A DNA stretch of 64,000 nt from Chloroflexota bacterium (lineage in GTDB: Bacteria > Chloroflexota > Anaerolineae > Anaerolineales > Anaerolineaceae), in the NCBI GenBank assembly GCA_040754815.1, contig JBFMBX010000003.1, positions 346,329 to 410,328 on the forward strand, written 5' to 3'. The first letter of the stretch is position 1. Each line of letters begins with the position of its first letter. Both the position numbers and the translations under genes were made by a program. The notes below the pieces were generated by a model. It ran no database searches, was not told the DNA's origin, and saw nothing but the letters and a program-made list of their open reading frames with translations. This document shows positions 32,805 through 54,167 of the stretch, one piece after another.

Positions 32805-32810
32805 ATTAAT

Positions 32811-35151: not shown

Positions 35152-36344
35152 TGCTGAATTGTCAAGTTTTTTATTGCCCTGTTTAACTTTTCGCCAATGA
35201 TTCGCCAATCATAACAGGTTTCGACCAGTTTTCGCGCTTCTCTGGTTAGTCTATCCTTGAGTTGTGTATTTCTTAAAACCTGTATCGTCGCAGAAGCAAA
35301 CTCGTGAGGGTTATCTTTGATCAGCAGATGTTGATCATTGATCACCTCTAGACCTTCGGCACCTTTGGAGGTGGTTATAACGGGTGTTCCAACCGCCATT
35401 GCTTCGAGTATTTTTAATCGTGTTCCTGCCCCGTGTCTTAATGGAATTACACAAGCATCACATGAAGATACGAGCGAATTGATATCCTCAACAAAACCCG
35501 TAAATACAACCTTTTCATTAATGGAGGGTAATTTTTCAACATTATCGGTTTTACCAGTGATCAGCAATTGACAATCCGGGATTTCTTCTAGGATGAGCGG
35601 GAAAATCTCGGAGATAAAATAATTCATTGCGTCAAAATTTGGCCAATAGGATAAAGATCCATTGAATATAATTCGCGGTGATGTTGATGAAATAGAGTGG
35701 TTCTTTTGATGATTAACTTCCACGCCGTTGGGAATTGAAATGATTTTATTCTGATCGAGTTGAATATAATTGCGAGACCGAATCTTATCTAATTCCGAGC
35801 AGACTAAAGCAAGATCGAATTTACGATAAATTTTGTTTTCATAGTTCTTGAATTTCCAGTACGCAAGATAACGTCTAATTTTTTCAATCCCTCCCTTACT
35901 CTCTTTGTAAAGATCTTTCAACATAAGCGCTAAAAGATTGTCCATATCCACGACATGAAAGATATCGGGAATTTGAAGCGCATAAGGTGCGGTCACAAAA
36001 GTCAGAGCAAAAGCCATATCAGGTTTCCAGGTTTCTGCAATTTTCTGTACCTTTTCCCTCATTTCTCTGGAATAACCGGCTACAACCGCACTGGGCAGAG
36101 GGGAGAAAAATCCCAGAAACTTTCTGAACCTGGAGTAGTCAAAGGGTTTTCTATTGACAATAACAATTTCGTTGCAATAAGTTTTTAAATGAGTTATCCA
36201 TTGTTTCTCAACTGGATTATCGCAGAATGAAATCAGATAGATCTCGTTTTCCTCACTCAAGCTCCTGAGGAGGTTGTATGCCCGAATTTTACTGCCTTGT
36301 GTTGGCGGATATGGAAACCAGGTTGTGAGATAAAGGATTTTCAT
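35148..36344 (-). CDS. GT4 glycosyltransferase
   Basis: PYPPTQGSKIRAY, GSLSYWPNFDA, GAGTRLKILEAMAVG. Confidence 0.9.
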   Translation of the reverse strand: MKILYLTTWFPYPPTQGSKIRAYNLLRSLSEENEIYLISFCDNPVEKQWITHLKTYCNEIVIVNRKPFDYSRFRKFLGFFSPLPSAVVAGYSREMREKVQKIAETWKPDMAFALTFVTAPYALQIPDIFHVVDMDNLLALMLKDLYKESKGGIEKIRRYLAYWKFKNYENKIYRKFDLALVCSELDKIRSRNYIQLDQNKIISIPNGVEVNHQKNHSISSTSPRIIFNGSLSYWPNFDAMNYFISEIFPLILEEIPDCQLLITGKTDNVEKLPSINEKVVFTGFVEDINSLVSSCDACVIPLRHGAGTRLKILEAMAVGTPVITTSKGAEGLEVINDQHLLIKDNPHEFASATIQVLRNTQLKDRLTREARKLVETCYDWRIIGEKLNRAIKNLTIQQ

Positions 36345-36368
36345 TTAATTGACGGTATCTTTTTATTC

Positions 36369-37178
36369 CTAATCTTCAAAAAATGCGGCCCATTCAGTGT
36401 TATTAAACCTTGATTTTAAGTCCTCATAATTTTCTATGATTTGAGATAAAGGTTGCTGAATCTGTTTGTGAGTTTGGGCTTTTACCGGAACTTTCGAAAG
36501 GTTTAAGAATTTCTGGATTTTTTGAATTTCTGCGTCGGTATTTTGAGACAGGTGTTCATAAATAACTTCAATTTTGGGGTGGTCACAAAAAAATTCATCA
36601 GCTTCATTTTCCCATGCCCGCGTTTGTATAAAGTCTTTCAATAAAGATTCATAATCCAGTTTATAAGTTTGGACCTGAATATTTTTACCATCCGTATTAA
36701 CCCATTGTCCGGTCTTGAGAGCATTTTCACGCGATAAATGCGTTCTTAGAATATTTTTTCGTTTGATGTGGACGATGTGAATATCTTTTTGTTTCTTCAA
36801 TTCTTCCCATAACTGAGAGAAAGGAAACTCTCTCGCGTGGTAATAAAACAACTTGAAACCGACAGCCTTAATGCCGGCATGAACTTTATTAAAAACAATC
36901 TTCTTCAGAAAGGAAATCGGATCGTTCTGGTAAATTTTCAGAATCTTTGGAGATAATTGAAATTGCGGATGGTCAAAGTCAATGGTATCGGTATTACGAA
37001 AGATTTCACCCAGAACAAGGACTTCGGGATGCGAAAAGAGCAGGCTGCGAAGAAAATTACTACCCGTACGAGATCTTCCTAATATGATAAATTTCGTATA
37101 GTCGAGAGTATTGGATAAAAAACCGAGTTGAAGAGCGATATTTTTTAATGGGGAATGGGGAGATAATAATTTTTTCAC
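36369..37178 (-). CDS. Stf0-like sulfotransferase
   Basis: PAPS loop GRSRTGSNFL, GFKLF, HIKRKNILRTHLS, YEHL. Confidence 0.8.
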   Translation of the reverse strand: MKKLLSPHSPLKNIALQLGFLSNTLDYTKFIILGRSRTGSNFLRSLLFSHPEVLVLGEIFRNTDTIDFDHPQFQLSPKILKIYQNDPISFLKKIVFNKVHAGIKAVGFKLFYYHAREFPFSQLWEELKKQKDIHIVHIKRKNILRTHLSRENALKTGQWVNTDGKNIQVQTYKLDYESLLKDFIQTRAWENEADEFFCDHPKIEVIYEHLSQNTDAEIQKIQKFLNLSKVPVKAQTHKQIQQPLSQIIENYEDLKSRFNNTEWAAFFED

Positions 37179-37216
37179 AATTTTGTCCGATTATTGAAAG
37201 GCTGATGGGGGGGGTG

Positions 37217-38137
37217 CTAATTCAGCGATTTTATTTTCCTTCTCATTCCTAGATTACCGGAATAATAATCTAGCAGACCTTGTAGCAATGCATTGCGATG
37301 TGCTTTCTTATCTTTCCATTTTGGAAAGAATGTCCACGCAAATAGGGTTCGAAAGAGAGAAGCATTAACCATTAATTTTGAAGTCAATGGAGCGTGATGC
37401 TTATATAGAGTAAGCAGGCGATTCCGAGCTGCATAATAGGTTACGTTTGGCGATGGTTGATAATCTCTTTGAACACCTTTGTGCCAGATTTTCGCCTGGG
37501 GAATGAGCCAGATTCCCCAGCCGGCTTTCCGAGCGCGTATACACCATTCGGTTTCTTCCCAGTAATAAAAATATCTTTCGTCCAATCCTCCGATTTTTTC
37601 AATCACTTCTCTTTTGAGCATTATTGCACAACCGGAAATCCAATCTACCTGATGGGGTTGTGAATACTGACCAACATCTGGTTCGTTTTCTCCAATATGG
37701 ATGGCTCGCCAGTCTGAAGTTAATTTCCCGCCTGCGCTTTGAATTAGCTGTGGCTCATTATAGTGATAAACCATTGGTCCAACTACACCGGCGCGAGGGT
37801 TTGTTTCTCCAAATGCAACGAGATGGGAAATTGATTCTGGATCAATAATGATATCTTCGTTGATCACGAAGATATAATCCGCACCTTCATCCAAGGCAAG
37901 TTGGATGCCGGTATTGTTATTTCCCGCGTACCCCTTGTTTTCTTTCAGATGGATTATTTTTGTAGAGGGGTACTTTTCACGGATTGCTTCTATGGAACCA
38001 TCTTTTGATGAGTTATCCAATACCCAAACGATGATGTTGGGATAATTGTTTAGTTGCAGTGATGCGAGACAGGCCAGCGTATCTTCTTTGCGGTTAGTAT
38101 TCAAGATAATAACGCCAACGAGAGGGTTAATTTTCAT
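37217..38137 (-). CDS. GT2 glycosyltransferase
   Basis: VIILNTN, VLDNSSKDGS, GYAGNNN, INEDI, YYWEETEWC; ATG 38137 forms an ATGA overlap. Confidence 0.92.
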   Translation of the reverse strand: MKINPLVGVIILNTNRKEDTLACLASLQLNNYPNIIVWVLDNSSKDGSIEAIREKYPSTKIIHLKENKGYAGNNNTGIQLALDEGADYIFVINEDIIIDPESISHLVAFGETNPRAGVVGPMVYHYNEPQLIQSAGGKLTSDWRAIHIGENEPDVGQYSQPHQVDWISGCAIMLKREVIEKIGGLDERYFYYWEETEWCIRARKAGWGIWLIPQAKIWHKGVQRDYQPSPNVTYYAARNRLLTLYKHHAPLTSKLMVNASLFRTLFAWTFFPKWKDKKAHRNALLQGLLDYYSGNLGMRRKIKSLN

Positions 38138-39129
38138 TCTACCCACGCAGAAGGCAAGTTTTTCATGATCTCAATATTGCTAAATTTTTGAGATTGCCGG
38201 GAACCAGCTTTTTTCACCCAACAGGCCATAAGATCCAGCCCTTCCTCAAGAGAGGTTGTTGAACGTTTTCCAAAAATTCGTTCAATTTTTTCGTGGCTGG
38301 AATAGGCATCCTTAACTTCGTTGCGTGGCGGCAAATATACGATGTTTGGAGAAACACCCATTGCCCTGGCGACTGCACGAGCGAGCTGGTTGACCGAATA
38401 GGGGGTATCAGCGCCGATATTGAATATCTGATTATACGCCTGGGGAATTTCAATTGACTCAGCCATGAGAGGTGCAACATCACGGATATAACTGAATGCT
38501 CTGGTCTGGTTGCCGTCACCAAAGATGGTCATTGGTTTACCCTGTAAAATCTGATTCATGAAAATTCCAACAACGTTTCGATATTTATCCCCAATATTTT
38601 GCCTTTCTCCATAAACATTATGTGGGCGAAAAATAATGTAATTGAGTCCGAACATCTCGTGACTGACTCTTAATTCCTGTTCAACGGCGAATTTCGCGAT
38701 TCCATACGGATCTTCAGGATGGGGGGAATCTTCTTCGCTCATGGGTAATTTTGGACTGGCTCCATAGACAGCAATTGATGAAGTAAAAACAAAACATTTA
38801 ACATCGTGGTTAATAGAGGCGTTTATCAGATTAACACTTCCAATGAGATTATTTGTGTAATTGAAGTGTTTTATAAAATGGCTCAGTCCCTCGGCGGCAT
38901 AAGCGGCGAGGTGAAAAACATAATCGAACCGCTCGGTTTTGAAGAGGTTCTTCACCAACTCACCGTCGGTTATGCTCCCCTTGATGAAATGTACACCGTC
39001 AACAAGGTTGTCTTCAAAACCACCGGATAAATCATCTAACACATATACCTCATATCCTCGATTGAGTAACTGCTCACTCAGGTGAGAACCGATGAAACCT
39101 GCACCACCTGTGACTAAAACTTTGCTCAT
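38134..39129 (-). CDS. NAD-dependent nucleotide-sugar epimerase/dehydratase
   Basis: TGGAGFIGSH, FTSSIAVYG, YGIAK (YxxxK), NVYGERQ. Confidence 0.92.
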   Translation of the reverse strand: MSKVLVTGGAGFIGSHLSEQLLNRGYEVYVLDDLSGGFEDNLVDGVHFIKGSITDGELVKNLFKTERFDYVFHLAAYAAEGLSHFIKHFNYTNNLIGSVNLINASINHDVKCFVFTSSIAVYGASPKLPMSEEDSPHPEDPYGIAKFAVEQELRVSHEMFGLNYIIFRPHNVYGERQNIGDKYRNVVGIFMNQILQGKPMTIFGDGNQTRAFSYIRDVAPLMAESIEIPQAYNQIFNIGADTPYSVNQLARAVARAMGVSPNIVYLPPRNEVKDAYSSHEKIERIFGKRSTTSLEEGLDLMACWVKKAGSRQSQKFSNIEIMKNLPSAWVE

Positions 39130-39142
39130 GTTATTTCCTCGA

Positions 39143-40252
39143 TTATCCAAAAATATATGGATATATTGATTTGAGTATGGAATTCCTGGTTATGCCCATT
39201 AAGATCAATGGGATGGCTAAGCCAAATCCTAATAAAACGATACAGAAAAACACCGGAACGATAAGTAGTTGGGGGAGGAAATGATAAATGATTCTCGCTA
39301 CGATGATGAGGATTATGGAATGGGAAAGATAGATCCCGTAGGTTTTCGTACCTAAATTCTCAAGGTGTTTTTCGAGTGGAAGCTTCAAGTCAATGAAGCC
39401 AATAAAAGAAAATAAAATGCAGGCGGAGAATAAATTATCCACAAGCGTTTCGTGAGGGCTAAGCCATTGCTGACCGGATTGAACCAGTAAAAATTCCCAC
39501 TCCACCATTCCTAATAAAAATAAAATCCCGGCAATGAGTAATAGCGGCCATCGAATTTTCTTGAGATAATTTTTGGTTTCTTGAACTCTGATACCCAATA
39601 CAATTCCAAACAAAAACCAGAAGATGTGCCCCGCAAAGAACCATCCCGAGTTGAGCAAGGAAAAAAAATGGTTAAGAGTTGTTTGTATTCCTAAGGTTAC
39701 TGGATAATCCACGGCCTTTATCGCAATTTGAATAATTGCTGAGAGCCATAAAGTTATTTTCCAATTCCAGTTCACCAGCCGAATTAAGAAAGGCGATAAT
39801 GCATACAATGTAACCAGTAATGGAACGAAATAATATGCCTCGGTTGCCTGACCAGTGAGGAAGATGCGGCCCAACTGTATGGGTGAGTACCGTTCCCCCT
39901 GCAATATATTGTAGATAATCATCAGAATTGACCAAAATAAGTAAGGAATGACAAGATACTTTATTCGACTCAGAACGAAATTCCACTCAACTTTTTTCTG
40001 CTTCCCTGCTGAAAAAGCAACAATGTATCCTGAGACCATTAAGAATGCCGGAATGCTGGGAATGATCCATTGTTCTAAAAATCGAAGAATGAAATAAGAA
40101 GGTGAATAAATTTGTGAAAAATTGGGTGAAGACATGGGGGAATAACGGTGTACCCACCAGAACATTGCAACAAATGCCCACCCAATGGAATGATTGAGAA
40201 CAACATTGATAATGGCAATGCCGTTTAATAGTAAAAATCGTTTAGCAATCAC
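39143..40252 (-). CDS. Acyltransferase family 3 (OafA-like) membrane acyltransferase, paralog 3
   Basis: LNGIAI...NH, IPAFLMVSGY, RIKYLVIPYLFWS, AYYFVP, TYGIYLSH; about 10 TM helices. Confidence 0.85.
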   Translation of the reverse strand: MIAKRFLLLNGIAIINVVLNHSIGWAFVAMFWWVHRYSPMSSPNFSQIYSPSYFILRFLEQWIIPSIPAFLMVSGYIVAFSAGKQKKVEWNFVLSRIKYLVIPYLFWSILMIIYNILQGERYSPIQLGRIFLTGQATEAYYFVPLLVTLYALSPFLIRLVNWNWKITLWLSAIIQIAIKAVDYPVTLGIQTTLNHFFSLLNSGWFFAGHIFWFLFGIVLGIRVQETKNYLKKIRWPLLLIAGILFLLGMVEWEFLLVQSGQQWLSPHETLVDNLFSACILFSFIGFIDLKLPLEKHLENLGTKTYGIYLSHSIILIIVARIIYHFLPQLLIVPVFFCIVLLGFGLAIPLILMGITRNSILKSIYPYIFG

Positions 40253-40260
40253 GAGGAAGT

Positions 40261-41355
40261 TTACCCGAATATAAATACATATAATGGTTTAAGTTTATTT
40301 GTGGAAGTTATGATTTGAATAACAAGGAGAGGAACTCCGATACCGGTCAGAAATATAACTACATAAAATAGTAAGGGAAAAGGTAATATCCAGGGAGCAA
40401 AATGATAGATTCCCCTTGCAACGATCTCCATCACCGGTACATGGGCAAGATACAATCCATAAGATTTGCTCCCTAAAAAGTTAAGGGTTTTGGAAAAAGG
40501 TAAAACCCCTTTTTCACCTATGCTAATGAAACTTAGTAGAACGGATAACCCGAACAAAAAATCTGTAATGGTTTCACGGTTTTGTAATGAACCATTGAGA
40601 ATTTCCCACTCAAGAAATCCAATAAAATATAAAAGCAGAGATGAAATTTTCCAGATTCGGGCATGGCGAAAAACAAAAGCTTTGATTTGAGAATAATGTA
40701 TGCCAATCACAATGCCAGCCGAAAACCAAAACAACCGTGATATGAACAACCATTTGGGGATCTGAGGCAAAGAAATAATCCACTCATGGCGATAACCGAG
40801 TAGGGTCAGCATAACTGGCAGATGGATAAATATTTGCAGAATACCGGTCGTGATGAGTAGAATGCGCCAATTCTTTTTTGCAAGGGGTATAAGGAGGGGG
40901 GCGACCAAATAAAGCTGGATAATCAGAGGAACATAATAGTAAGCAGGGGTTGTGTCGCCTGTTAGGAAGTTAATCAACAAACGGTCGGGTTGGAGATTTT
41001 TCCCCTCGATTATTCCTAGGAAAAGGAAGAGGATAGTCCATAGAAGATAAGGGATTAACAAACCTTTTATGCGGATGAGGGTTTGTTTATAGTGCATCCC
41101 GATTGAATGCCTGCCCGATAGAAAGGCAGCAAAATAACCGGAAACAAAAATAAACGCAGGAATGCTAAACACAACCAGCTGCTCGATTGCGCGCATCAGA
41201 TAATAAGAAAAGCTACCGGTTGGGTCGGCAACGGCAGGGGTGGTTGGGTAACGACTGCCCCATGAGAACATGGACGTCATTACCCAACCCGCGCTATGAA
41301 AGAGGATGACGCAGAAGGCTGCTACGCCATTCAGGGAAAGTAGGTTCTTTGTCAG
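40261..41355 (-). CDS. Acyltransferase family 3 membrane acyltransferase, paralog 2 (probable CTG start)
   Basis: IPAFIFVSGY, LIPYLLWT, AYYYVP, SYGLYLAH; frame stays open upstream of ATG 41280 through TKNLLSLNGVAAFCVILFH, matching the paralog N-termini. Confidence 0.85.
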   Translation of the reverse strand: MTKNLLSLNGVAAFCVILFHSAGWVMTSMFSWGSRYPTTPAVADPTGSFSYYLMRAIEQLVVFSIPAFIFVSGYFAAFLSGRHSIGMHYKQTLIRIKGLLIPYLLWTILFLFLGIIEGKNLQPDRLLINFLTGDTTPAYYYVPLIIQLYLVAPLLIPLAKKNWRILLITTGILQIFIHLPVMLTLLGYRHEWIISLPQIPKWLFISRLFWFSAGIVIGIHYSQIKAFVFRHARIWKISSLLLYFIGFLEWEILNGSLQNRETITDFLFGLSVLLSFISIGEKGVLPFSKTLNFLGSKSYGLYLAHVPVMEIVARGIYHFAPWILPFPLLFYVVIFLTGIGVPLLVIQIITSTNKLKPLYVFIFG

Positions 41356-41365
41356 CGGTCAGTCC

Positions 41366-42667
41366 TTAATCCTGAGATACTTGTGTAAATTCAGGAAGAT
41401 CATCAATTGGCATACTGGTGAGTTTAGAGCGAAGTATGTGGTTTTCTGTTTTTTCAACAGTTTCAATATACTGGCGCATAGCAGCCAGTACGGGTACTTC
41501 CTTACGGTCATAAACTTCACCTTGAAGAAGCCGAAGCACTTCCAGACGATATTTTTTCGACTGAATGAAGTGGGTAAAGAGGGGCAGCAATTTGTAATAC
41601 AGGCGAATAAATTCATACCACACACTAACCCCGGCCCGCATTTTTACTTCATAGGGTTTGAATGCTTCTTCACTGAAATCGCCGGTTTCGAACGCCTGCC
41701 GTATAAATTGTGAACCATATTTTGCTGAATACAGGGCAATGCTAACACCCGAAGAGAAGATGGGATCAACGAAGCGAGCAGCATCTCCAATCAGCATAAA
41801 GCCGTTGCCCACGAATTTATCCATAGAGTATGAATAATCGCCTTCCTGCTTGAATTCATTAATCCTTCTTGCTTCGGAAAGTGCATATTGCAGGCCCTCA
41901 TTTGAATTGACATATTTGTAGAAATAACCTTCTATATCCCCCTTGGCCTCCATGAAGACTTCTTTTTCTGCAACGATGCCCATCGAAGTGATTTTATCGG
42001 TGATAGGAATTTGCCAGGCCCAACCTCTTTCTACGGGAAGGAAATAAATGTGGATGAAATCGGCGGTATCTGGTTCACCGCGTTTGACATTTTCGAACCA
42101 GGCGTGAACAGCGTATTGGTTAAAAATGGGATCTTTCTTCTTGATCCCCAACTGGCGGCCAAGGAGGGTGTTCCTTCCACTGGCATCCACAATCATCCTT
42201 GCCGGCAGATCAACTTCCTGATCGGCAAATTTTACACGAACACCCGTGGCATAATTTTTTTCATCAAATAATACCTGTTTTACAGTCACACCTTGAATAA
42301 TCTCACTACCAAGGTTCTGTGCGTGCTTGAGCAAGAGTAAATCCAACTTTCCCCGATCCACATGGTACGTGTAGGGTTGATTGACGCCTTCCTGTGGAAA
42401 TTCGTCGAACCAAATATGAGAAGCACCCCGGCCTTTGATATCATGCCACGATGCACCGTATTTATGAGGAAAACCTTCTTTTTCCATGGTGGGGAGAAAT
42501 CCAATTTCGTTGTAGACGCGGGTGGAAGAGGTGACCATCGATTCGCCCACGTGAGGACGCGGATGAATGGCCGATTCAAGGATGACATTCTTGATACCTG
42601 CCATTGACAGATAACTACCCATGACCGATCCGGCAGGGCCACCACCAATAATGATTACGCGATTCAT
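41366..42667 (-). CDS. pltA: Carrier-protein-dependent flavin halogenase, PltA-like
   Basis: IIGGGPAGS, HVGES, catalytic-Lys region FPHKYGASW, HVDRGK, WAWQIP (WxWxIP), GDAARFVDPIFSSGVS, and a C-terminal WYEFIxLYY...YRLxxLxLLQGxVY block recalled from PltA; GGAGG RBS before ATG 42667. Confidence 0.88.
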   Translation of the reverse strand: MNRVIIIGGGPAGSVMGSYLSMAGIKNVILESAIHPRPHVGESMVTSSTRVYNEIGFLPTMEKEGFPHKYGASWHDIKGRGASHIWFDEFPQEGVNQPYTYHVDRGKLDLLLLKHAQNLGSEIIQGVTVKQVLFDEKNYATGVRVKFADQEVDLPARMIVDASGRNTLLGRQLGIKKKDPIFNQYAVHAWFENVKRGEPDTADFIHIYFLPVERGWAWQIPITDKITSMGIVAEKEVFMEAKGDIEGYFYKYVNSNEGLQYALSEARRINEFKQEGDYSYSMDKFVGNGFMLIGDAARFVDPIFSSGVSIALYSAKYGSQFIRQAFETGDFSEEAFKPYEVKMRAGVSVWYEFIRLYYKLLPLFTHFIQSKKYRLEVLRLLQGEVYDRKEVPVLAAMRQYIETVEKTENHILRSKLTSMPIDDLPEFTQVSQD

Positions 42668-42716
42668 TTTAGCCTCCAATATTTGGAAATTTGAAATAGA
42701 TGAAATGAGGTTTGGT

Positions 42717-43829
42717 TTAACCCCACACATACGAATAGAATTGTTTGATTGGGAAGCGATTCCAGATTGACATCATCACCAAAGGAGTACCGATTCCCAC
42801 TACAACCAAAATTCCAAGGAAAAAAAGGGTCTGTCCTAATAAAAAAGGAATTACATGATAAATCAGGCGGGCACAAATTTCGATGACCAGGATATGACTT
42901 AAGTAAATTCCATAAGATTTTGTTCCGATAAATTGAATATTTGGAGAGGTCTTGAGATTATCGATAAATCCAATTACCGCGAGAATGAAAAGAGAATAAA
43001 CCAACTTTGTAATAAATGAGGCTTGTGAATTAATCCAGTTTTTTTGGCTTAAATTCATCAGGTATTGTATTTCTATCTGACTCAGGACAATGAAAAATAA
43101 TAGAATGGAAACCAATATAAAACGATACCGCCGGATTACCTTGAGTAATCCATCGCGTTTTATAAAAATTAACATTCCCAAAACAAACCAGAAAAGGTGA
43201 GAAGCAAGATAGCCATTTTTTAAAAAAGCGAAGTTGCTCAACCACTCGGGAACAGACAGATTCATGGTGCTAAAGTACCAAAATATACTACTTAAGAATT
43301 GCAACAAAAATGATCCACCCAATACAATATAGGGTGTTTTATTGAGCATTCTTATCAGGAGAGGAGATAATAAAATCAACTTGATAATGAGGGGAACGTA
43401 ATAAAATGGTCCATCTGCTTCTCCCATGAGATAAACTCTAACCAGTTTTCCGGGAGTGTAATCATTTCCTTCAAGGATCCTAAAGAACACGGTTATCGTT
43501 GACCAAAAAAGGTACGGTGGAATTAGATAAATCAACCGGTTGTAAATGGTTTGAATGTTTTGTTTAAACGGCTTTTGATTTGTTGAAAAGGCATAAAAAT
43601 ATCCAGAAACAAATAAAAAAATGGGTACCGCTACTCCGGCGATTTCATCGGTTATCCGTAAAAATAATGAGGTGGGATTTGCGGTTAGTAGGGTTTGTGA
43701 ATTTATATTGCTTACAAACCGATCATTCCAATGGAATATGGCTGTAACTGCCCAATAAATGGCATGGTGATAGACGGCAAAAATGATCGCAACGCCATTC
43801 AGGAAAAGAAGTTTAACGGTCATGGTCAA
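42717..43829 (-). CDS. Acyltransferase family 3 membrane acyltransferase, paralog 1
   Basis: LNGVAI...HH, VPIFLFVSGY, LIPPYLFWS, PFYYVP, SYGIYLSH. Confidence 0.85.
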   Translation of the reverse strand: MTMTVKLLFLNGVAIIFAVYHHAIYWAVTAIFHWNDRFVSNINSQTLLTANPTSLFLRITDEIAGVAVPIFLFVSGYFYAFSTNQKPFKQNIQTIYNRLIYLIPPYLFWSTITVFFRILEGNDYTPGKLVRVYLMGEADGPFYYVPLIIKLILLSPLLIRMLNKTPYIVLGGSFLLQFLSSIFWYFSTMNLSVPEWLSNFAFLKNGYLASHLFWFVLGMLIFIKRDGLLKVIRRYRFILVSILLFFIVLSQIEIQYLMNLSQKNWINSQASFITKLVYSLFILAVIGFIDNLKTSPNIQFIGTKSYGIYLSHILVIEICARLIYHVIPFLLGQTLFFLGILVVVGIGTPLVMMSIWNRFPIKQFYSYVWG

Positions 43830-43836
43830 TTTTCGG

Positions 43837-43867
43837 GAGCAGGGAAAATTCTAAAATTTCCCTGCTC
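43837..43867. repeat. Intercistronic inverted repeat directly 3' of the carrier-protein gene
   Basis: 11-bp perfect stem gagcagggaaa / tttccctgctc with 9-nt loop and no U tail on the minus strand. Confidence 0.7.
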
Positions 43868-43873
43868 TCTTAT

Positions 43874-44119
43874 CTACTTGACCAGTTTTTGATCAAGGTA
43901 ATTGCTAATGGCATTCACGCTCATGAAATTTTCAATCACAACGTCTTCGTCTGGTACGGTGTAGTTGAATTTTTCTTCGATGAACGCCACCAGCTGCAAG
44001 ATGCCCAATGAATCAATAATGCCTTCGCCGAGAAGGTCTTCATCCTCGCTGATGTTTTTTTTACGACCCTTGGCAAGTTCATCAAGGATGAATTTATGGA
44101 TGACGGCTTTGGTTTCCAT
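43874..44119 (-). CDS. Stand-alone peptidyl/acyl carrier protein (PltL/RedO/DltC-like)
   Basis: 81 aa, acidic, GIIDSLG phosphopantetheine Ser, C-terminal ENFMSV. Confidence 0.92.
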   Translation of the reverse strand: METKAVIHKFILDELAKGRKKNISEDEDLLGEGIIDSLGILQLVAFIEEKFNYTVPDEDVVIENFMSVNAISNYLDQKLVK

Positions 44120-44140
44120 TCCTTATATTCCTTTCAATGA

Positions 44141-45724
44141 TTATGATTTATTTCTGGTTAGAGCAATTTCTTGCAATTCCCGCCTGTTAATTTTGCCGGT
44201 TGAGGTCCGAGGAAAATCGTCGGATATTATGATTTTGGCGGGAATTGCATAATTAGGCAATCGCCCGGAAAGGTGTTTAATCAGATCATCCTCACTCAAA
44301 TTCCCTCCTTCAACTAAAATAACCGCAGCCTCAATTAAATTGCTGCCTTCTACATCGGGGACAGGGTAAGCAGCTGCCTCATGAACAGTGGGATGAGAGA
44401 GCAATGCGGCCTCAACTTCGTCCAGTTCAACGCGGTAGCCCCTTGTTTTTATTTGACGATCTTTTCTGCCTAAAAATTTATAGTTGCCATCGGGGAGTTT
44501 TTGCACTAAATCGCCTGTGCGATAAAAAATATCTTCGCAATAGCCAAAAACCGGGCGTCGGCAAAAGCCTTTTTCGGTTAAATCGGGTCTCCCCCAGTAA
44601 CCTTTCATTACTGTTCCCCCTCTGATGAGTAATTCTCCGATTTCACCCTCCGGAAGTTGATTCCCATTACTATCCACAACAATATCTTCGATATTCTCGC
44701 ATGCAATGCCAATCGGAATGGGTTCATCGGAATCGGGTGGCAGAAGAGGGACATGGTAATAGGTGCAAACGTTTGTTTCCGTAGGTCCATAGAGATTCGA
44801 GAACTTCACCCATGGAAGTTTATTCATCAATGTCCGTAAGTGTTTGGTCGGAAAAGGTTCACCGGCAAATAAAATCCATCTCAGTGATGATAAATCCTTT
44901 GATTCTAAATTGCCCCTTTCAAGCATTTGTATTAATGCAAACGGAACAGAGTACCATATAGTAATTTTTTCATCCTGAATCCATTTTGCCATGCTGGCCG
45001 GCAGTTTTGTAATTCCTTCCGGGATAATAATCGTGGTTGCGCCGGCAATTGAGGAGGCAAAAAAGTCGAATGTAGAGAGGTCAAAATGGAGGGGGGCATG
45101 ATTGCTGATGCGATCCGTTGAATTAACTTGATAAGTCTGTACTGCCCATTCGGCAAAGCTCAAGCCGCTTCGATGGGTGTGCATGATTCCTTTGGGGGTT
45201 CCGGTAGAACCAGATGTGTAAAGGATATACGCCAAATCTTGTTCAACAAGAGATAAGAGGGGAGGGGAGGAAGGCAAGGTAAAAATTTTTTCCCATGAGG
45301 TTGCCGGAATTTTTATTTCCGGATTGTTCTGTATCCCGATCAAACCCGACAATTGGGTTTGTTTGATGATTTCACTCAATTGTTCTGACTTCGATTCATT
45401 CGTGATAATAAATTTGATTCCACAGTCATTAATGACAAAAGATAATCGTTCGGTGGGGGCAAAAGGATCCAGGGGAACATAAGCTGCGCCAGCGATCAAA
45501 ATTCCATAAATTGCCACAGCAGAATAGATGTTTTTGTTCATATAAATCCCAACCCGATCGCCGCGCCCCACACCTGCTTTTTGAAGATAATTGGCTAATT
45601 GGGCGGATTTTTCCGCTAATTGCTGATAGGTTAGCTCTTCCCTCATGTAGCGGATTGCCACTTGAGAAGGTGCTGATTCGGCATTTTCAAAAACGCCATG
45701 ATGGAGTAGATAACGATATTTCAT
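44141..45724 (-). CDS. Stand-alone amino-acid adenylation enzyme, proline-type (PltF/RedM-like)
   Basis: YTSGSTGTPKG, NHAPLHFDLS, WYSVP, LFAGE, NLYGPTETNVC, YRTGD, TGK; specificity code read by eye is DLFYLALVCK. Confidence 0.85.
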   Translation of the reverse strand: MKYRYLLHHGVFENAESAPSQVAIRYMREELTYQQLAEKSAQLANYLQKAGVGRGDRVGIYMNKNIYSAVAIYGILIAGAAYVPLDPFAPTERLSFVINDCGIKFIITNESKSEQLSEIIKQTQLSGLIGIQNNPEIKIPATSWEKIFTLPSSPPLLSLVEQDLAYILYTSGSTGTPKGIMHTHRSGLSFAEWAVQTYQVNSTDRISNHAPLHFDLSTFDFFASSIAGATTIIIPEGITKLPASMAKWIQDEKITIWYSVPFALIQMLERGNLESKDLSSLRWILFAGEPFPTKHLRTLMNKLPWVKFSNLYGPTETNVCTYYHVPLLPPDSDEPIPIGIACENIEDIVVDSNGNQLPEGEIGELLIRGGTVMKGYWGRPDLTEKGFCRRPVFGYCEDIFYRTGDLVQKLPDGNYKFLGRKDRQIKTRGYRVELDEVEAALLSHPTVHEAAAYPVPDVEGSNLIEAAVILVEGGNLSEDDLIKHLSGRLPNYAIPAKIIISDDFPRTSTGKINRRELQEIALTRNKS

Positions 45725-45732
45725 GGAAAACC

Positions 45733-47034
45733 TCAATTAATATTTTTTTCAGGAATAGGTGAAGATGAAATTTCTGCTTCTACGGAAGATTTATTGACTT
45801 TTTGTTTCAAAAAGTATGTCATCAACGGCCCTGCGATAAGGGATGTTGTGACTGCCATGACAAATAAGGCTACGAATATACGTTCGTCAATCAGCCCTTG
45901 GGATAATCCTATGCCCGCAAGGATAATGCCGGTCGCTCCTCGAGCATTCAATCCACTTGCTATTGCCAATGTGTAATGATCAATTTTCATACCACCGATT
46001 TTTGCACCGATCAATACGGCAGAAAATTTTGAGAAGATGGCAAAAATGAGGAGAATTAACACAAGGGGAAAATCAAAATTTGCCACAAAGTTCGTTTTCA
46101 TGCCAATTGAAACAAAATAAATCGGTGCAAAGAACGCCATTACAAATTGAGAAATAACCGCATGAGCTTCTTCCGCTTCCGGGTGTTTACCCGCAACAAT
46201 GGCACCTAATAAAAATGCGCCCAGAAAAGCATCAATTCCGATGAGTTCAGTTACGGATGAAGTGAGTAAAATTGCTACCGTTGTAAAGGCGATAAAACCG
46301 GTTGGCCACATCAGGGTTTTGCGGATAAACCGCAACGCTTTAGGTGCAAACCAACGACCCAGTGTTAACATTAAGATGAAAAAGATCAGGATAAGAACAA
46401 TAGTTGAACCTGTTCCTAACATGAATTCACTGGTTTGAATGGTTGATACACTAAGCATCATCGCAAATAAAATCCAAATAATTACATCATCCACCACCGT
46501 TGCAGTCATTGTGATTGCCCCGATTTCTTTATCGAGAAGCTTGAGATCTTGAAGTATCCGAATAATTACCGGATTGGCTGAGTTTGCGAGATTAATACCT
46601 ATGAAAAGACCAAATATAGAGAGATTTTTTTCGGCAATTTCTCCCCAAAAATGGGAAGGTATCAGATGGACTAATGCAAATCCCAAACCGATTGGGAGGA
46701 TAGTTCCGAATGAACCGATAAAAAAGGCGTATTTTCCAATATGATTTCCTTTTGAGAAATTAATTTCCAAACCTGCAATGAACAAAAAAAATAACATCCC
46801 CATTTTGATGGAAGCGTCCCGCAATATACCTACCTCTTGGGAGGATAAAAACAACCAATGATAAATATCAGGGAATAACAATCCCAAAATAGTAGGACCA
46901 AGAATTACTCCACCAATAAGCTCTCCCAATACTGCTGGCTGGCGAAATTTTTGCATTGCCTTGCCCATAATGAGAGCACACGAAAGCATAACAGCAATTT
47001 GTAAAAAGAATTTAATCAGGTCTGAATTGTTCAT
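45733..47034 (-). CDS. Cation:proton antiporter (CPA2 family)
   Basis: About 12 TM helices, VLGELIGGVILGPT, FLFIAGLE, VVDDV, FFAPIYFVSIG, LNARG. Confidence 0.9.
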   Translation of the reverse strand: MNNSDLIKFFLQIAVMLSCALIMGKAMQKFRQPAVLGELIGGVILGPTILGLLFPDIYHWLFLSSQEVGILRDASIKMGMLFFLFIAGLEINFSKGNHIGKYAFFIGSFGTILPIGLGFALVHLIPSHFWGEIAEKNLSIFGLFIGINLANSANPVIIRILQDLKLLDKEIGAITMTATVVDDVIIWILFAMMLSVSTIQTSEFMLGTGSTIVLILIFFILMLTLGRWFAPKALRFIRKTLMWPTGFIAFTTVAILLTSSVTELIGIDAFLGAFLLGAIVAGKHPEAEEAHAVISQFVMAFFAPIYFVSIGMKTNFVANFDFPLVLILLIFAIFSKFSAVLIGAKIGGMKIDHYTLAIASGLNARGATGIILAGIGLSQGLIDERIFVALFVMAVTTSLIAGPLMTYFLKQKVNKSSVEAEISSSPIPEKNIN

Positions 47035-47042
47035 GATATATC

Positions 47043-48257
47043 TCAGGTTCTATTTGGAACGGCTTTTTCAAAATTTTCTTGTATCTTTTGAATCGAAGCA
47101 CTCCAGCTCCATTTTTCTTTCACATCTTGCAGGCTTTTATTTCCATATTCCCGAGCCTTTAATGGGTTTTGGAGTAAATCCATAATGGAATGGGAGAAAA
47201 TTGACTCATTTCTTTCGACGAGACGACCGGTAACCTGATCTTGAACGGTTTCAAGAAGGCCGCCCTCTCTAACACCAACAACCGGCGTAGCGCAGGCCAT
47301 CGATTCGAGAGCGACAAGACCAAAGGGCTCTCGATAAGGCGTGTATGCAGTCAATGTCGCAGAATTGTACAATTCAACCAGTTTATCGTCCGATATATTC
47401 GACATGAAGTAAACCCGCACGTTTTTGGTTTTGGCGAGATCGGTTAAAAAATTCAGTTCCTCATCATTGGTAAAATTGCTCGAAATGACAAGGGGGACTC
47501 TTTTATCGGGTGGAAGTAAAGCGAGCGAACGGATGATAAAATCAAAGCCCTTTAAAGGGGTTAGTGAGCCAACCGAAAGGATAAAGGTTGATTTTTGCAC
47601 ATTTGCAAGCGGATGAAATTTGTCGGTATCCACTCCCAGATAACTGACAATTGCTTCAATCCCGTAAATTCGTTCCACTTGTTTTTTTGTGTAATTGGAG
47701 TTGACAAACACCCTATCGGCGTGGCGGATATTTTGAAAGTCGTTTTTTCTGAGCAATTTATTGTAAAGAAATAAAAAGGGGTCTATGCTGTCAGCAACCC
47801 TTCGGAAGGCAGATTTATTCTTATAGTAAGGGCGAGGAGGTTGTTCTTCGTAAAGGATACGATAGGGTTCATGGCAGTAAAAAACGGTGGGGAGGTCATG
47901 AATGTATCTTAAAACCGAAGGTGCATTTTCAAATTGACAGGGTTCAAAAAAAACCAGATCCGGCTTATTTTGCTCAATATCTTTTGCTATAAATTTGCCC
48001 AGTTCACGAAGTTTAACTAGATCGAGAGTCCGTATCAGAGCATTCAACCTTCCAAACGGGGAGTGGAACAGCTTGCCCGGTTGGAAGGGATATATTTTAT
48101 GGGAGTTTACATAAGGACGAATATCACAAAAGTCATGATTGGCTGTTTGAAGTGTGTAGATATCAATTTGGTTGCGATCACAAATTCTCCGCACGATCTC
48201 ATAGAGCGATCTTTTTGCTCCACCAGAAGTTAAATTGTGAAAAATAGCAATTTTCAT
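47043..48257 (-). CDS. GT4 glycosyltransferase
   Basis: GGAKR, KGFDFII, EPFGLVALESMACATPV. Confidence 0.9.
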   Translation of the reverse strand: MKIAIFHNLTSGGAKRSLYEIVRRICDRNQIDIYTLQTANHDFCDIRPYVNSHKIYPFQPGKLFHSPFGRLNALIRTLDLVKLRELGKFIAKDIEQNKPDLVFFEPCQFENAPSVLRYIHDLPTVFYCHEPYRILYEEQPPRPYYKNKSAFRRVADSIDPFLFLYNKLLRKNDFQNIRHADRVFVNSNYTKKQVERIYGIEAIVSYLGVDTDKFHPLANVQKSTFILSVGSLTPLKGFDFIIRSLALLPPDKRVPLVISSNFTNDEELNFLTDLAKTKNVRVYFMSNISDDKLVELYNSATLTAYTPYREPFGLVALESMACATPVVGVREGGLLETVQDQVTGRLVERNESIFSHSIMDLLQNPLKAREYGNKSLQDVKEKWSWSASIQKIQENFEKAVPNRT

Positions 48258-48259
48258 TT

Positions 48260-49369
48260 TTATATCCCCGAGGGGAAATAGATCTTGTTTTCCGAGCGCA
48301 AAAGTTGCCTTACTTTGAGCAAGGTTTGTAAAACCATCGGATTAATATCTAATAGAAATTTGACTAACCTCGTTTTTTTATCGGAAGGGTATTTGATTAC
48401 TGCGTTTTTGAGCAATTTTCTGTAAAGAGGGGTATGGTCTAAATGATTTAGAATTCCTTCGAGAACTGCCAGACGGATAAGCTGATTTTGATATGGGGGT
48501 GAAAGATTTTCAAAAGCGGGATGAGTAAGTAGTTTGTTGATTAAATTGCCGTCACCGTGTAAAAGATTAACAAAAAGGTCATAAAAGACGTAATAGCGCG
48601 TCTCTTCGCTGCATTCATGAAAGCGAGGCAAATCCAACATTTTAGTTCTACAGAGAATCAATGATTGGGTTTTCTTTATACTACCTGCCGTCAGTGAAAT
48701 ATTGGTTTGGTGAATTCGGTAATAACACAACTTGTGATCGAGATATCCATAACGAATAAACTGAGATGCTCGCGTGAAGAAATCCCAATCAGGTCCGATG
48801 ACGATTCTTGTGTCAAAAGAGATGTTCAAGGGGAGAATTCTGCTGCTTCTCATCATGACGGTCAAAGGAGGACCAAAGACATCGGATGCCCTTACCAGTT
48901 GTTCAAATAAATCTCCCATGAACGGTCCTCTGCGAAATTTTGAGAGAGAGGACAGGACTTTATTTTCCGAATTAATATAAAAACCGTCGCAATAAACTGC
49001 GTCCAACTCGGGATGTTGATTTAAAAAAGAGACCATCAGCGCTAAATAGGTCGGAGCGTATTGATCATCCGAATCCAAAAATGCAAGAAATTCTCCATTA
49101 ATCTTTGTCAAGGCATTATTTCTGGCATCTGCCTCGCCTGAATTTGGTTGGTGAAAAACCCGTATGCGTGAGTCGGTATAGGATTTGAGAATTTCAGCGG
49201 TATGATCGGTTGAGCCATCGTTAATGATGATCAATTCCCAGAGTGAATAGGTTTGGTGTAAAACACTTTCTATTGCTTGGGCAATAAATTTTTCTGCGTT
49301 ATAAGCCGGCATCATGATAGAAACTAAACCGGGTTGAAAGATGGACATTGAAAGAGAATTGTTATTCAA
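48260..49369 (-). CDS. GT2 glycosyltransferase
   Basis: VSIMMPAYN, INDGSTD, ARN, FLDSDD, DWDFF. Confidence 0.92.
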   Translation of the reverse strand: MNNNSLSMSIFQPGLVSIMMPAYNAEKFIAQAIESVLHQTYSLWELIIINDGSTDHTAEILKSYTDSRIRVFHQPNSGEADARNNALTKINGEFLAFLDSDDQYAPTYLALMVSFLNQHPELDAVYCDGFYINSENKVLSSLSKFRRGPFMGDLFEQLVRASDVFGPPLTVMMRSSRILPLNISFDTRIVIGPDWDFFTRASQFIRYGYLDHKLCYYRIHQTNISLTAGSIKKTQSLILCRTKMLDLPRFHECSEETRYYVFYDLFVNLLHGDGNLINKLLTHPAFENLSPPYQNQLIRLAVLEGILNHLDHTPLYRKLLKNAVIKYPSDKKTRLVKFLLDINPMVLQTLLKVRQLLRSENKIYFPSGI

Positions 49370-50583
49370 GACCGCAATCCTGTTGTTTCTTCAATGGCAT
49401 AAAGTATATTTTGGGCGGTGTGTCTCCACGAATGTCGGGTTTCGGCTTCCAGACGGGCTTGTTGTCCCATTTGTTTTCTGCACGCATGATTACTGATCAG
49501 ATATATCAATGCGTCTGTTAAGGCCTGTTCATCACAAGGAGGAATGATCATACCGGTTTGCATATGGGTCAGGGTATCGGGTTGTCCATTTTCCCCCGAT
49601 GCGATTACGGCCAAACCAGCGGCTTTATAATCAAATAATTTCAGCCCCGAATACTCATTCCAGCCGCAATAGGGAGAAAGACCAATTTCACAGGAGGCTA
49701 AAATAGGTGCATATTCTTCGGGAGTAAGGGAACCAGTAAAAGTAACATTTCTTTCAATGCCCAATTCCCTAGTTAAGGCTTTCGTTTTTTCCAGTTCACT
49801 TCCTGCACCAATCATAAACAGGTGAACGTTCTGTTCTTGTTCCATTAATCTACTGAAGGATTTAACCGCGCTTATCGTGCCATGCCAGGGAAAGAATCCC
49901 CCTAAATATGCAATATTAATTGGGGTGGATGAAGATGTTTCTTGAAAGTTTGAAAGTTCATGCCTTTTCAGCAGATCAATCAGGGGTGTGCCGTTTTCAA
50001 CAACCCTTACTTTATGGGAGGGAACACCCCACCTTTCGGTCAAATTATTTTTCCACCCTTTGCCTGACGCTATGATGAGAGATGCGCTGTTAAGGATTTT
50101 GCGAAAAATCCAAATTGAGGTGGACAATTGAACACCATTGGGTACCTGGCCCTTTGATTTCAAATCGTGCAAGGGGTCGCCGTTGAATTCCAATATCAGG
50201 GGGATGCGAAGTTTTTTTGCGGCAAGCAAGCCGCCGTAACCCATCCACGATACTCTTTCGTATAGACAGTGGAAGTTGCTGGAATTAATGCGGATGCTTT
50301 CTGCAAAACGTTTGCTTGCAAAGTAATTCACATACGGCGCTCCAGTCATGGACTGGATTTTTCTAATTGCGCTTTCATAAATGCTCTTTTTCTTCTGGTT
50401 TATCTTTTTAAAATTCTGTAAGTCCTCTGTTGTCCAGTATGCAGAGTCGATTCCCCCTATAAACCGGACATGATGACCCATTTTCAACCACTCGGCAATG
50501 ATATGTCTGATGTGGTTTGCCGGCCCATCAAAGGGTGGAAATCGAATTTCAGGACTGAGCTGTGCCAGATAGATAATATTCAT
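49366..50583 (-). CDS. GT4 glycosyltransferase
   Basis: GPANHI, ENG, YLGGFFPWHG, SGLKLFDYKAAG; TAATG overlap at 50583. Confidence 0.88.
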   Translation of the reverse strand: MNIIYLAQLSPEIRFPPFDGPANHIRHIIAEWLKMGHHVRFIGGIDSAYWTTEDLQNFKKINQKKKSIYESAIRKIQSMTGAPYVNYFASKRFAESIRINSSNFHCLYERVSWMGYGGLLAAKKLRIPLILEFNGDPLHDLKSKGQVPNGVQLSTSIWIFRKILNSASLIIASGKGWKNNLTERWGVPSHKVRVVENGTPLIDLLKRHELSNFQETSSSTPINIAYLGGFFPWHGTISAVKSFSRLMEQEQNVHLFMIGAGSELEKTKALTRELGIERNVTFTGSLTPEEYAPILASCEIGLSPYCGWNEYSGLKLFDYKAAGLAVIASGENGQPDTLTHMQTGMIIPPCDEQALTDALIYLISNHACRKQMGQQARLEAETRHSWRHTAQNILYAIEETTGLRS

Positions 50584-51569
50584 TATCCGGCAATTTCCTC
50601 GATTGTTTGACAAATTTTTGGACTGATCAAGTTACTATCGCATTTTGCGAGGACTGCTTCTCTTAATTTGAGCTGTTTTGCTATTTTTACCTCGTGGTTA
50701 AGTTGATCGTATTCTATTAACTTTTCAACAAATTCTCCATCAGTAAAAAACAGATTTTCCTGAGGCAACAGTTCATCTGCGCCCGGCCAGAAATGGGATA
50801 GGCAGTAACATCCTGTTGCAATGGCTTCCATTGGCGAAACCTGCAATCCTTCTGAATAACTGTTCGAGACAAAAACATCAATGTTGCGGAAGAATTCCGG
50901 TGTATTTTCGACCTGCCCATAAAAATGTACGTTTTTTTCAATCCCTAAACGGCAAGGTAAATCAGTTAAGGCGTTGTAATAATCCAAAAATCTGGGATGG
51001 GCGCCACCGCCAATGTGTAGATGAAATCCTTCTTTGTGCAAATTGTTCTCAAAAAATCCCAAAATCAATTCGTAAACTCTTTTACGGGGGATGAGATTGC
51101 CTAAAATTCCGATGTTTCTTTTATATAAACGCGGTTGATAGGGAAATCTGGTCGGGTTAACGGATTCCGGTATTACCAGTATTTTTTCGTTATAACCCGG
51201 AAATTTAAGATTGAATTCCCGGCGTTTGGCTTCGCTCACCAGAATAATTCGATCTACTTTTGACCAGTCTATCTGATCTCCCCATTGATATAGTTCGTAG
51301 CGATGTAAGCGGGTAATAATCGAGGTTGTCTTGGGAAGTCGAGTGGTATAAGCAAGAAGCTCGCTTGCCCACTCAAAGAAAACAATCTGGTTTTTCTTTA
51401 AGAAATTCCTCAATTGAAGATCAAAATGTCTTTTTTGCAGTCTTTCTCGAAAGACGGGGAATTTAATGATTTGCGGTTCAAAAGTGTTTACCGAGTGATA
51501 TTTACCCAGTTCTTCATAAATATCCCGAAAAAATGCCCATGTTTCATTATTTACTACACCAATGTGCAT
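50583..51569 (-). CDS. GT-B (GT4-like) glycosyltransferase
   Basis: RLHRYE, LVSEAK, KRVYE, SYSEGLQVSPMEAIATG. Confidence 0.8.
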   Translation of the reverse strand: MHIGVVNNETWAFFRDIYEELGKYHSVNTFEPQIIKFPVFRERLQKRHFDLQLRNFLKKNQIVFFEWASELLAYTTRLPKTTSIITRLHRYELYQWGDQIDWSKVDRIILVSEAKRREFNLKFPGYNEKILVIPESVNPTRFPYQPRLYKRNIGILGNLIPRKRVYELILGFFENNLHKEGFHLHIGGGAHPRFLDYYNALTDLPCRLGIEKNVHFYGQVENTPEFFRNIDVFVSNSYSEGLQVSPMEAIATGCYCLSHFWPGADELLPQENLFFTDGEFVEKLIEYDQLNHEVKIAKQLKLREAVLAKCDSNLISPKICQTIEEIAG

Positions 51570-51575
51570 GTCAAT

Positions 51576-53420: not shown

Positions 53421-53428
53421 GGTGTTCC

Positions 53429-54163: not shown

Positions 54164-54167
54164 TGGA

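Follow-up and report, generated by a model that had tools for sequence, protein, structure and literature searches.

We analyzed a 64-kb stretch of the genome of an uncultured Chloroflexota bacterium of class Anaerolineae (assembly GCA_040754815.1, contig JBFMBX010000003.1, positions 346,329 to 410,328), hereafter the window, which contains a block of seven co-oriented minus-strand genes running from position 47034 down to 39143. The block encodes, in order, a CPA2-family cation/proton exchanger, a stand-alone adenylating (A) enzyme, a peptidyl carrier protein (PCP), a membrane acyltransferase of family 3 (AT3), a flavin-dependent halogenase, and two further AT3s, with intergenic gaps or overlaps of −14 to +49 bp. 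We propose that it is an acyl-decoration module for a sulfated cell-surface polysaccharide, which would follow the logic of the D-alanylation system Dlt with different parts and would install a proline-derived, probably chlorinated pyrrole ester. We put this reading at slightly better than even, about 55%. From the sequence we infer all of its elements, namely the proline substrate, pyrrole formation, halogenation, the carrier as AT3 donor, the glycan acceptor, the halide, and the side of the membrane.

In the proposed order of events, the A enzyme, which resembles PltF of pyoluteorin biosynthesis, would adenylate L-proline and load it onto the phosphopantetheine arm of the 81-aa carrier protein. 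Prolyl-S-PCP would then be converted to pyrrole-2-carboxyl-S-PCP, in the family at large by a homologue of the acyl-CoA dehydrogenase PltE and here by an activity that would be supplied elsewhere in the genome or bypassed. The PltA/Mpy16-type halogenase would halogenate the tethered pyrrole, with chloride the likely halide in groundwater. A membrane AT3, most likely the last gene of the block (AT3c) together with its neighbor AT3b, would take the acyl group from the phosphopantetheine thioester of the carrier rather than from acyl-CoA. The acyl group would finally be esterified to a sugar of the polymer, probably the product of the adjacent epimerase, installed by the adjacent family 2 glycosyltransferase (GT2).

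The A enzyme (44141..45736, minus strand, as are all genes below) contained AMP-binding and AMP-binding_C domains and matched TIGR01733 with 396.5 bits (cutoff 317.4). Its best single-domain match in the PDB was PltF (6o6e, 4e-103). The 10-residue specificity code, DLFYLALVCK, equaled that of PltF, DLLYLALVCK as read from the PDB alignment, at nine of ten positions, and the sole difference, Phe at position 239, was also present in a second solved proline ligase, 7thn. When the pocket segment was searched alone, it retrieved PltF at 4e-38 and 7thn at 7e-30, with all other A domains at 1e-15 or weaker. The A10 lysine was present in the motif STGKINRR. Models of DltA were also matched, at 293 bits, below their cutoff. 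From family membership and pocket code we infer that this enzyme is an L-proline--[carrier protein] ligase candidate. The free-standing carrier protein (43874..44119, 81 aa) matched PP-binding (PF00550) with 28 bits (cutoff 20.8) and carried the phosphopantetheine attachment site Ser37 in the DSL motif of GIIDSLG. Its PDB matches were type II free-standing PCPs, including PltL (5e-6), and DltC was matched weakly; in the closest relatives it was 83-85% identical.

The halogenase (41366..42730; Trp_halogenase/FAD_binding_3) matched ChlB4 (3e-126), Mpy16 (3e-124), and PltA (1e-123) in the PDB over its full length including the C-terminal region, with residues 25-442 aligned to residues 11-445 of the PltA chain. 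Identity to ChlB4 and Mpy16 was about 49-50%. CndH, CmlS, and Bmp2 were matched far more weakly. The catalytic lysine and the WxWxIP and FxxPxxSxG motifs separate halogenases from monooxygenases. All three were present, the lysine in GFPHKYGASW (aligned to GFPKKYGAAW of ChlB4) and the others as GWAWQIP and FVDPIFSSG, and were invariant in relatives, as was the GGGPAG (GxGxxG) motif at residues 29-34 of the open reading frame (ORF) in 25 relatives. These features suggest that the enzyme acts on a carrier-tethered substrate, as in the PltA/Mpy16/ChlB4 clade. The longest ORF, of 454 aa, overlapped the upstream AT3 by 14 bp, and homologues of 420-440 aa started at the equivalent of M22 (MNRVIIIGGG), so that the true start is probably M22, at 42667. 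Among thousands of homologues, the top 120 were all at least 68% identical and mostly from uncultured Chloroflexota. No gene of the locus was more conserved or slower to evolve than the halogenase (87-94% identity among genomes with 40-56% G+C content; nonsynonymous divergence, dN, 0.05-0.10 with synonymous divergence, dS, saturated).

An earlier note, made from the window sequence, had described a tightly packed, co-oriented seven-gene block flanked by glycosyltransferases, with a code close to that of PltF, an A enzyme beside a carrier protein, and a halogenase matching PltA motifs along its length including the C-terminal block; the coordinates, profile and pocket-segment matches, PDB alignments, and invariant motifs bear this description out. 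Of the enzymes that it had named for comparison with the halogenase, PltA and Mpy16 were matched far more strongly than Bmp2 and CndH. Our family scans, which covered the predicted genes (ORFs of at least 130 aa) of the 64 kb, likewise agreed with its statement that polyketide synthase (PKS), nonribosomal peptide synthetase (NRPS) condensation, and ketosynthase (KS) domains are lacking: no family match to any of these, to thioesterases, or to acyl-CoA dehydrogenases was found in the window ORFs.

We then considered the acyl donor of the AT3s. The motif R-X10-H in transmembrane (TM) helix 1 (Arg14/His25 of OafB) has been called 'absolutely conserved' in AT3s, which also carry RXXR on the cytoplasmic side of helix 3 (PMC9833829). 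The arginines of these motifs have been proposed to hold the 3′-phosphate of coenzyme A (CoA) (PMC9833829). In all three window AT3s the Arg of R-X10-H was replaced by Asn and the His equivalent to His25 was kept. Asn or Ser occupied the Arg14 position in 58 of the 62 cassette AT3s with a readable motif and in 98 of the 123 family representatives with a readable TM1 (about 80%), a further 27 representatives being truncated. For RXXR, the alignment of which to the Pro anchor is somewhat ambiguous, the first Arg was kept in the window AT3s and the fourth position was Y, G, and Y; in relatives the motif read R-(I/V)-(K/R)-x, with the fourth residue never Arg. The controls, Oac of phage Sf6 and OpgC of E. 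coli, carried both R-X10-H and RXXR. A phosphopantetheinyl carrier protein does not have the 3′-phospho-ADP part of CoA. Because the arginines assigned to the CoA 3′-phosphate are lost in an AT3 clade that is always encoded beside a carrier protein, a carrier-protein donor fits, and the AT3s may take the acyl group from the PCP instead of from acyl-CoA. This subfamily was small and discrete (751 clusters at E<=1e-3 among 1.84 billion representatives). No solved structure similar to an AT3 was found by sequence.

The three AT3s differed in their conservation. Two orthogroups were conserved among relatives, AT3-I (AT3b, window 40261-41355) and AT3-II (AT3c, window 39143-40252). AT3-I occurred in most loci, and the minimal cassettes with a single AT3 carried AT3-II. 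Since AT3-II is the one kept in minimal cassettes, AT3c (Acyl_transf_3, 4.8e-22, 78.9 bits; cutoff 31 for all three) is the best candidate for an acyl-S-PCP:glycan acyltransferase; its motifs are N10-X10-H21 and R96-I-K-Y in place of RXXR. AT3a (42717..43829; PF01757, 6.4e-31, 108 bits) is a divergent third paralogue with the TM1 motif N-X10-H (LLFLNGVAIIFAVYHH), which was confined to the nearest relatives of the window and formed an outlying branch in the AT3 tree. The listed ORF of AT3b (40261-41280; 2e-27, 96.6 bits) lacked the first helix when read from ATG 41280, and its Pfam match began at profile position 36. The 25 in-frame codons upstream of this ATG encode a conserved helix with the catalytic His, LTKNLLSLNGVAAFCVILFHSAGWV, which was conserved in loci L005 and L007. 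The sole start candidate after the TGA at 41361-41359 is CTG 41355, with AAGGA 7 nt upstream, and gene callers disagreed on the start in relatives (338 versus 375 aa); AT3b thus likely uses the non-canonical start CTG 41355. The one long AT3, P0242, considered in a search for PCP-AT3 fusions, proved to be a read-through of tandem AT3s.

When relatives were examined, the A, PCP, and AT3 genes stood beside the same epimerase and GT2 in over 60 loci of Chloroflexota and in a few of Acidobacteriota, and every relative context that we fetched was the same syntenic glycan locus. The gene order of the window locus recurred in L001, L003, L005, L007, L092, and L173. A first scan was anchored on the PltE-type acyl-CoA dehydrogenase and took the best 80 of 539 (species-level genomes). 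In 24 of these 80 genomes (21 Chloroflexota, 2 Acidobacteriota, 1 unclassified) the arrangement was dehydrogenase-A-PCP-(halogenase)-AT3-(AT3)-epimerase-GT2. About 30 of the best 80, from Cyanobacteria, Bacteroidota, and other phyla, carried dehydrogenase-A-PCP with NRPS genes, a different A code, and no AT3. A second scan was anchored on the AT3, with counts taken from the 24 loci that had at least 4.5 kb of upstream sequence: a PCP was present in 24/24, an A gene in 23/24, and the dehydrogenase and a PltA-like halogenase in 16/24 each. About 15 loci were without any halogenase-like gene. The conserved core would accordingly comprise dehydrogenase, A, PCP, and AT3, flanked by one epimerase and one GT2, to which halogenation is often added. 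No condensation domain, thioesterase, KS, or other candidate for off-loading the thioester was found in those relative loci whose genes carry precomputed Pfam calls. The idea of the earlier note that the AT3s off-load the thioester is supported by this synteny, by the reciprocal co-occurrence of AT3 with PCP and A, and by the lost CoA arginines.

The halogenase itself varied among cassettes. Several cassettes had no PltA-like halogenase and carried instead a gene only 26-32% identical to the window halogenase (L159, L018, L037, L061, L122, L144, and L156). The one scanned for its family, that of L159 (4560-6167), encoded a 535-aa enzyme of the Trp_halogenase family (Pfam 7.7e-41). The same carrier module may thus have acquired halogenases of two lineages, and halogenation of the tethered acyl group may have arisen more than once.

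Several observations weigh against the proposed reading, the first of which is the missing dehydrogenase. In most relatives, the A gene, of identical code (DLFYLALVCK), is immediately preceded by a gene for a PltE-type dehydrogenase, and for this reason we regard proline-to-pyrrole conversion as the default chemistry of the family. In the window, no ORF contained an Acyl-CoA_dh domain, and tblastn with the dehydrogenases of L003 and L004 gave a best E value of 6. The gene was also absent within 10 kb in the closest relatives (L001, L005-L007, L097-L101, and L136). Because the dehydrogenase is absent and PltA, to our knowledge, acts only on pyrrolyl-S-PCP, the window itself does not account for pyrrole formation or for the substrate of the halogenase. 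The earlier claim of a halopyrrole pathway therefore stood in part: the family default is read from the dehydrogenase beside the A gene in relatives, but the note had listed PltE among the pathway enzymes and missed its absence here.

The remaining points against the reading concern transfer, cofactors, and expression. We know of no AT3 that accepts a carrier protein, and no PCP-AT3 fusion was found. Flavin halogenases require O2. The closest named relative is a Bellilinea metagenome-assembled genome (Bellilinea sp., class Anaerolineae), from a genus that we take to be strictly anaerobic, at odds with this need. Neither a flavin reductase nor a phosphopantetheinyl transferase was found in the 64-kb window, and we found no RNA run carrying the halogenase gene. 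In the published view, AT3s use acyl-CoA 'rather than' acyl carrier protein (PMC9558356).

We next traced the loss of the dehydrogenase. L104 and L173/L174, with the same layout as L001, carried it intact at the position expected, and by this comparison it is taken to be ancestral to the clade of the window. A remnant in the window was ruled out, as tblastn gave nothing below E=6 and the exchanger gene shares 4 bp with the A gene. A substrate switch of the A domain in loci without the dehydrogenase was also rejected at the level of the 10-residue code, which is the same in every glycan-type relative, whether or not it carries the dehydrogenase. The topology of the halogenase tree required at least two independent deletions, and a further loss was seen in an unrelated locus with two halogenases, L133. 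In L090 (3127-5621), the halogenase of which was 87% identical to that of the window, the dehydrogenase was N-terminally truncated and multiply frameshifted and the A gene was frameshifted, with the exchanger, PCP, halogenase, and both AT3s intact. This locus may represent decay in progress, or a halogenase, PCP, and AT3s that work without their own A enzyme and dehydrogenase. After the loss, the A, PCP, halogenase, and AT3 genes remained intact, with dN of 0.05-0.48 and saturated synonymous sites in four lineages lacking the dehydrogenase, and were under strong purifying selection. The halogenase of this clade had only three fixed clade-specific substitutions, one of which, P67 beside the catalytic Lys, is the state of Mpy16 and ChlB4; we therefore set these changes aside as uninformative about new chemistry. 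No dehydrogenase match was found on the contigs of dehydrogenase-less loci, among the best 80 of 539 in the genome scan or the best 120 in a search of 5.8 billion proteins. The nearest homologues that we looked up in the latter set all lay inside cassettes, with no lone copy.

These results leave three options for the acyl group: chloropyrrolyl made through a trans-encoded oxidase, chloropyrrolyl made through a bypass by the halogenase, and prolyl, for which the earlier note had also allowed. The trans-encoded oxidase is the most likely of them. Were L-proline itself transferred by the dehydrogenase-less clade, as an aminoacyl ester like that of teichoic acid D-alanylation, the halogenase would have to act elsewhere or on a minor product. 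This option draws on the absence of the dehydrogenase in the window and its closest relatives, on an A code unchanged from proline-type relatives, and on the combination of A enzyme, carrier, and membrane acyltransferase that is the logic of Dlt and AlmEFG. However, the halogenase is the slowest-evolving gene after the dehydrogenase loss and therefore has a selected function, it is located between the PCP and the AT3s, and by textbook chemistry electrophilic aromatic halogenation does not act on a saturated prolyl ring. Prolyl transfer is hard to square with such conservation of the halogenase, and we regard it as unlikely.

A second possibility, which we hold a shade less likely again, is that the cassette makes a small halogenated pyrrole metabolite, free or on a small glycolipid and released by hydrolysis, with the AT3s as bystander O-acetyltransferases using acyl-CoA. 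All characterized modules of the PltF/L/A type feed small natural products, the roughly 30 dehydrogenase-A-PCP loci of other phyla adjoin NRPS genes without an AT3, and known AT3s do use acyl-CoA (PMC9558356). Against it, the window lacks any thioesterase, condensation domain, KS, or PKS/NRPS, and no thioesterase, condensation domain, or KS was found in the relative loci with precomputed Pfam calls. Moreover, the AT3 subfamily occurs with a PCP in 24/24 loci with enough flank and has lost the arginines for the CoA 3′-phosphate, and the position of the cassette within a syntenic glycan locus is fixed across deep divergence.

The halogenase might also replace the dehydrogenase, oxidizing prolyl-S-PCP through chlorination and HCl elimination (cryptic halogenation) before chlorinating the resulting pyrrole. 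Every clear dehydrogenase loss (the window group, L001/L105, L133, and the frameshifted L090) occurred in a cassette with a PltA-like halogenase, and none of the nearest dehydrogenase homologues looked up was a lone copy. N-chlorination of a secondary amine followed by elimination would be chemically plausible. Nevertheless, we know of no precedent for this among flavin halogenases, the enzyme has only three clade-specific substitutions, with P67 in the Mpy16/ChlB4 state, and the 64 kb of genome covered leaves room for a dehydrogenase encoded in trans. We consider the bypass improbable. Equally small is the chance we would give to the combined scenario in which carrier-dependent AT3s put chlorinated pyrrole-2-carboxylate on sulfated polysaccharide in many Chloroflexota and the halogenase performs the four-electron oxidation of prolyl-S-PCP in the window clade. 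A decaying relic, as the missing dehydrogenase and the frameshifted dehydrogenase and A genes of L090 might suggest, is scarcely credible and was rejected, since the window and at least 8 related contigs keep all seven genes intact, low dN goes with saturated dS, and nothing has been lost from the A code, the PCP serine, or the halogenase motifs.

The decoration module that we favor can be compared with several known systems. With Dlt (DltA/DltC/DltB/DltD) and with AlmEFG, which places glycine on Vibrio cholerae lipid A, it shares a stand-alone A enzyme, a small carrier, and a polytopic membrane acyltransferase, and it would likewise modify an envelope polymer. It differs in that the transferase is an AT3 and not an MBOAT (DltB) or LPLAT (AlmG) protein, in that a proline-type amino acid would be oxidized and halogenated on the carrier before transfer, and in its proposed acceptor, the sulfated polysaccharide product. 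No MBOAT or DltD family match was found in the window, and neither DltD nor DltX was among the Pfam/NCBIfam matches. The system is Dlt-like in its working and not a member of the Dlt family. With the pyoluteorin module PltF/PltL/PltE/PltA and its relatives Mpy, Bmp, Clz, and Hrm, it shares an A enzyme close to PltF, a type II PCP, and a halogenase of the PltA/Mpy16 clade. Relatives also have the PltE-type dehydrogenase at its usual site, but the window has none. Unlike that module, it shows no uptake by PKS or NRPS machinery and lies inside a glycan locus, paired with AT3s.

Further likeness is found in the clorobiocin/coumermycin (CloN1-N7) and chlorothricin (ChlB2/ChlB4/ChlB6) systems, in which a pyrrolyl or halogenated aryl group is built on a carrier and ends as a sugar ester; ChlB4 was also the top PDB match of the halogenase. 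In systems of the clorobiocin/chlorothricin type, soluble transferases of the KAS-III-like or alpha/beta-hydrolase kind act on small-molecule acceptors, whereas the block has no soluble transferase of such type and its only transferases are the membrane AT3s. The latter resemble the known AT3 O-acyltransferases (OafA/OafB, Oac, ExoH/ExoZ, OpgC, and WecH) in being PF01757 proteins that are stand-alone and of about 370 aa, with the TM1 His and the FxxSG(Y/F) motif of helix 3, encoded in a polysaccharide locus. They differ from these in having Asn or Ser for the Arg of R-X10-H, in the loss of the second Arg of RXXR, and in always lying beside a carrier protein, with acyl-S-PCP as the presumed donor. 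For the known AT3s the donor is acetyl-, succinyl-, or short acyl-CoA (PMC9558356). A survey preprint recorded PltA-like halogenases in ocean metagenome-assembled genomes and assigned them, without context, to 'pyrrole-containing natural products'. Full-text literature searches turned up neither a polysaccharide decorated with pyrrolyl groups or halogen nor an AT3 that depends on a carrier protein, in line with the statement in the earlier note that no described example was known.

The block is embedded in a polysaccharide locus of about 36 kb that lies wholly on the minus strand (27390..63836; Pfam and NCBIfam scans). Its content included a Wzc-like protein, GT4 and GT2 glycosyltransferases, the epimerase, Wzy_C, three to four sulfotransferase-like proteins, an AsnB-like amidotransferase, a Wzt/Wzm ABC exporter, and BNR-repeat proteins. 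Directly downstream of AT3c lies an NAD-dependent sugar epimerase/dehydratase (38134..39150; Pfam Epimerase 1e-56), which is GalE-like and under every equivalog cutoff, followed by a GT2 (37217..38146; Glycos_transf_2 2.3e-21). The epimerase was 68-83% identical and syntenic in nearly all glycan-type loci and always adjoined the AT3 pair; the GT2 was also syntenic in relatives, at 51-70% identity. The epimerase probably makes the sugar that would be acylated. Sulfotransferase-like genes were found at 36369-37178, 53429-54163, and 56938-58149, along with a fourth, weak match that in a relative forms a fusion with a GT2. From these genes the polymer is probably sulfated. Sulfated exopolysaccharides (EPS) are best known from cyanobacteria and marine EPS.

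The contiguity of the block was supported by environmental sequences. A groundwater metagenome held an identical 211-kb contig, and independent contigs from hot-spring and sediment metagenomes, with about 97-99.5% identity, covered the block, including the junction between the exchanger and A genes, without a gap. An assembly artefact at this junction was therefore ruled out.

The first gene of the block (45733..47034, 433 aa; Na_H_Exchanger 8.7e-42, TIGR00932 1e-43) has counterparts elsewhere. CPA2 exchangers lay in or beside the cassette in about five lineages (L004, L029, L104, L122, L144, L173, and the window), each with a halogenase-like gene, mostly PltA-like. The exchanger was present in 14 of 40 halogenase-bearing loci and in none of the 15 halogenase-free ones (p=0.006); with the window clade collapsed to one lineage, the counts were 5/31 versus 0/15 (p=0.16), which is a hint only. 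The exchanger might have a part in halide or pH handling. In L116 (17747-20500), L117, L126, L128, L157, and L025, the distal end of the glycan locus carried a second carrier protein with an A-like ligase (about 32% identical to the window A enzyme) and an AsnB-like protein. The window lacks this set, which hints at another decoration made through a carrier protein. Three window ORFs had no or only faint family matches: 55347-56948 (533 aa), 30262-31596 (444 aa), and 23999-24922 (307 aa). The 444-aa ORF gave a sub-threshold PMT_2 match, as did its L001 orthologue. Finally, the G+C content of window positions 2001-6000 was 0.50-0.56 compared with about 0.40 elsewhere; this segment spans the end of a 1053-aa beta-helix/DUF11 protein and an agmatine-deiminase-like gene, and the rise could reflect foreign DNA or gene-specific composition.

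If the proposed function is true, the module would represent a new class of glycan decoration, in which a heteroaromatic acyl group of the non-ribosomal type, often halogenated, is placed on a bacterial surface polysaccharide, and many uncultured Chloroflexota from groundwater, hot springs, sediments, and sludge would carry it. The roles that the earlier note suggested for it, among them phage masking and antifouling, are conjectural. It would also provide the first AT3 shown to use a carrier-protein donor, where the literature assumes acyl-CoA, and a compact means of acylating or halogenating polysaccharides site-specifically. That the dehydrogenase was lost repeatedly and the halogenase kept could expose new halogenase chemistry or an unrecognized trans-acting oxidase. 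For the phylum, the module would be a biological source of macromolecular organochlorine and would link halogenation and dehalogenation within Chloroflexota, the organohalide-respiring relatives of which share subsurface habitats.

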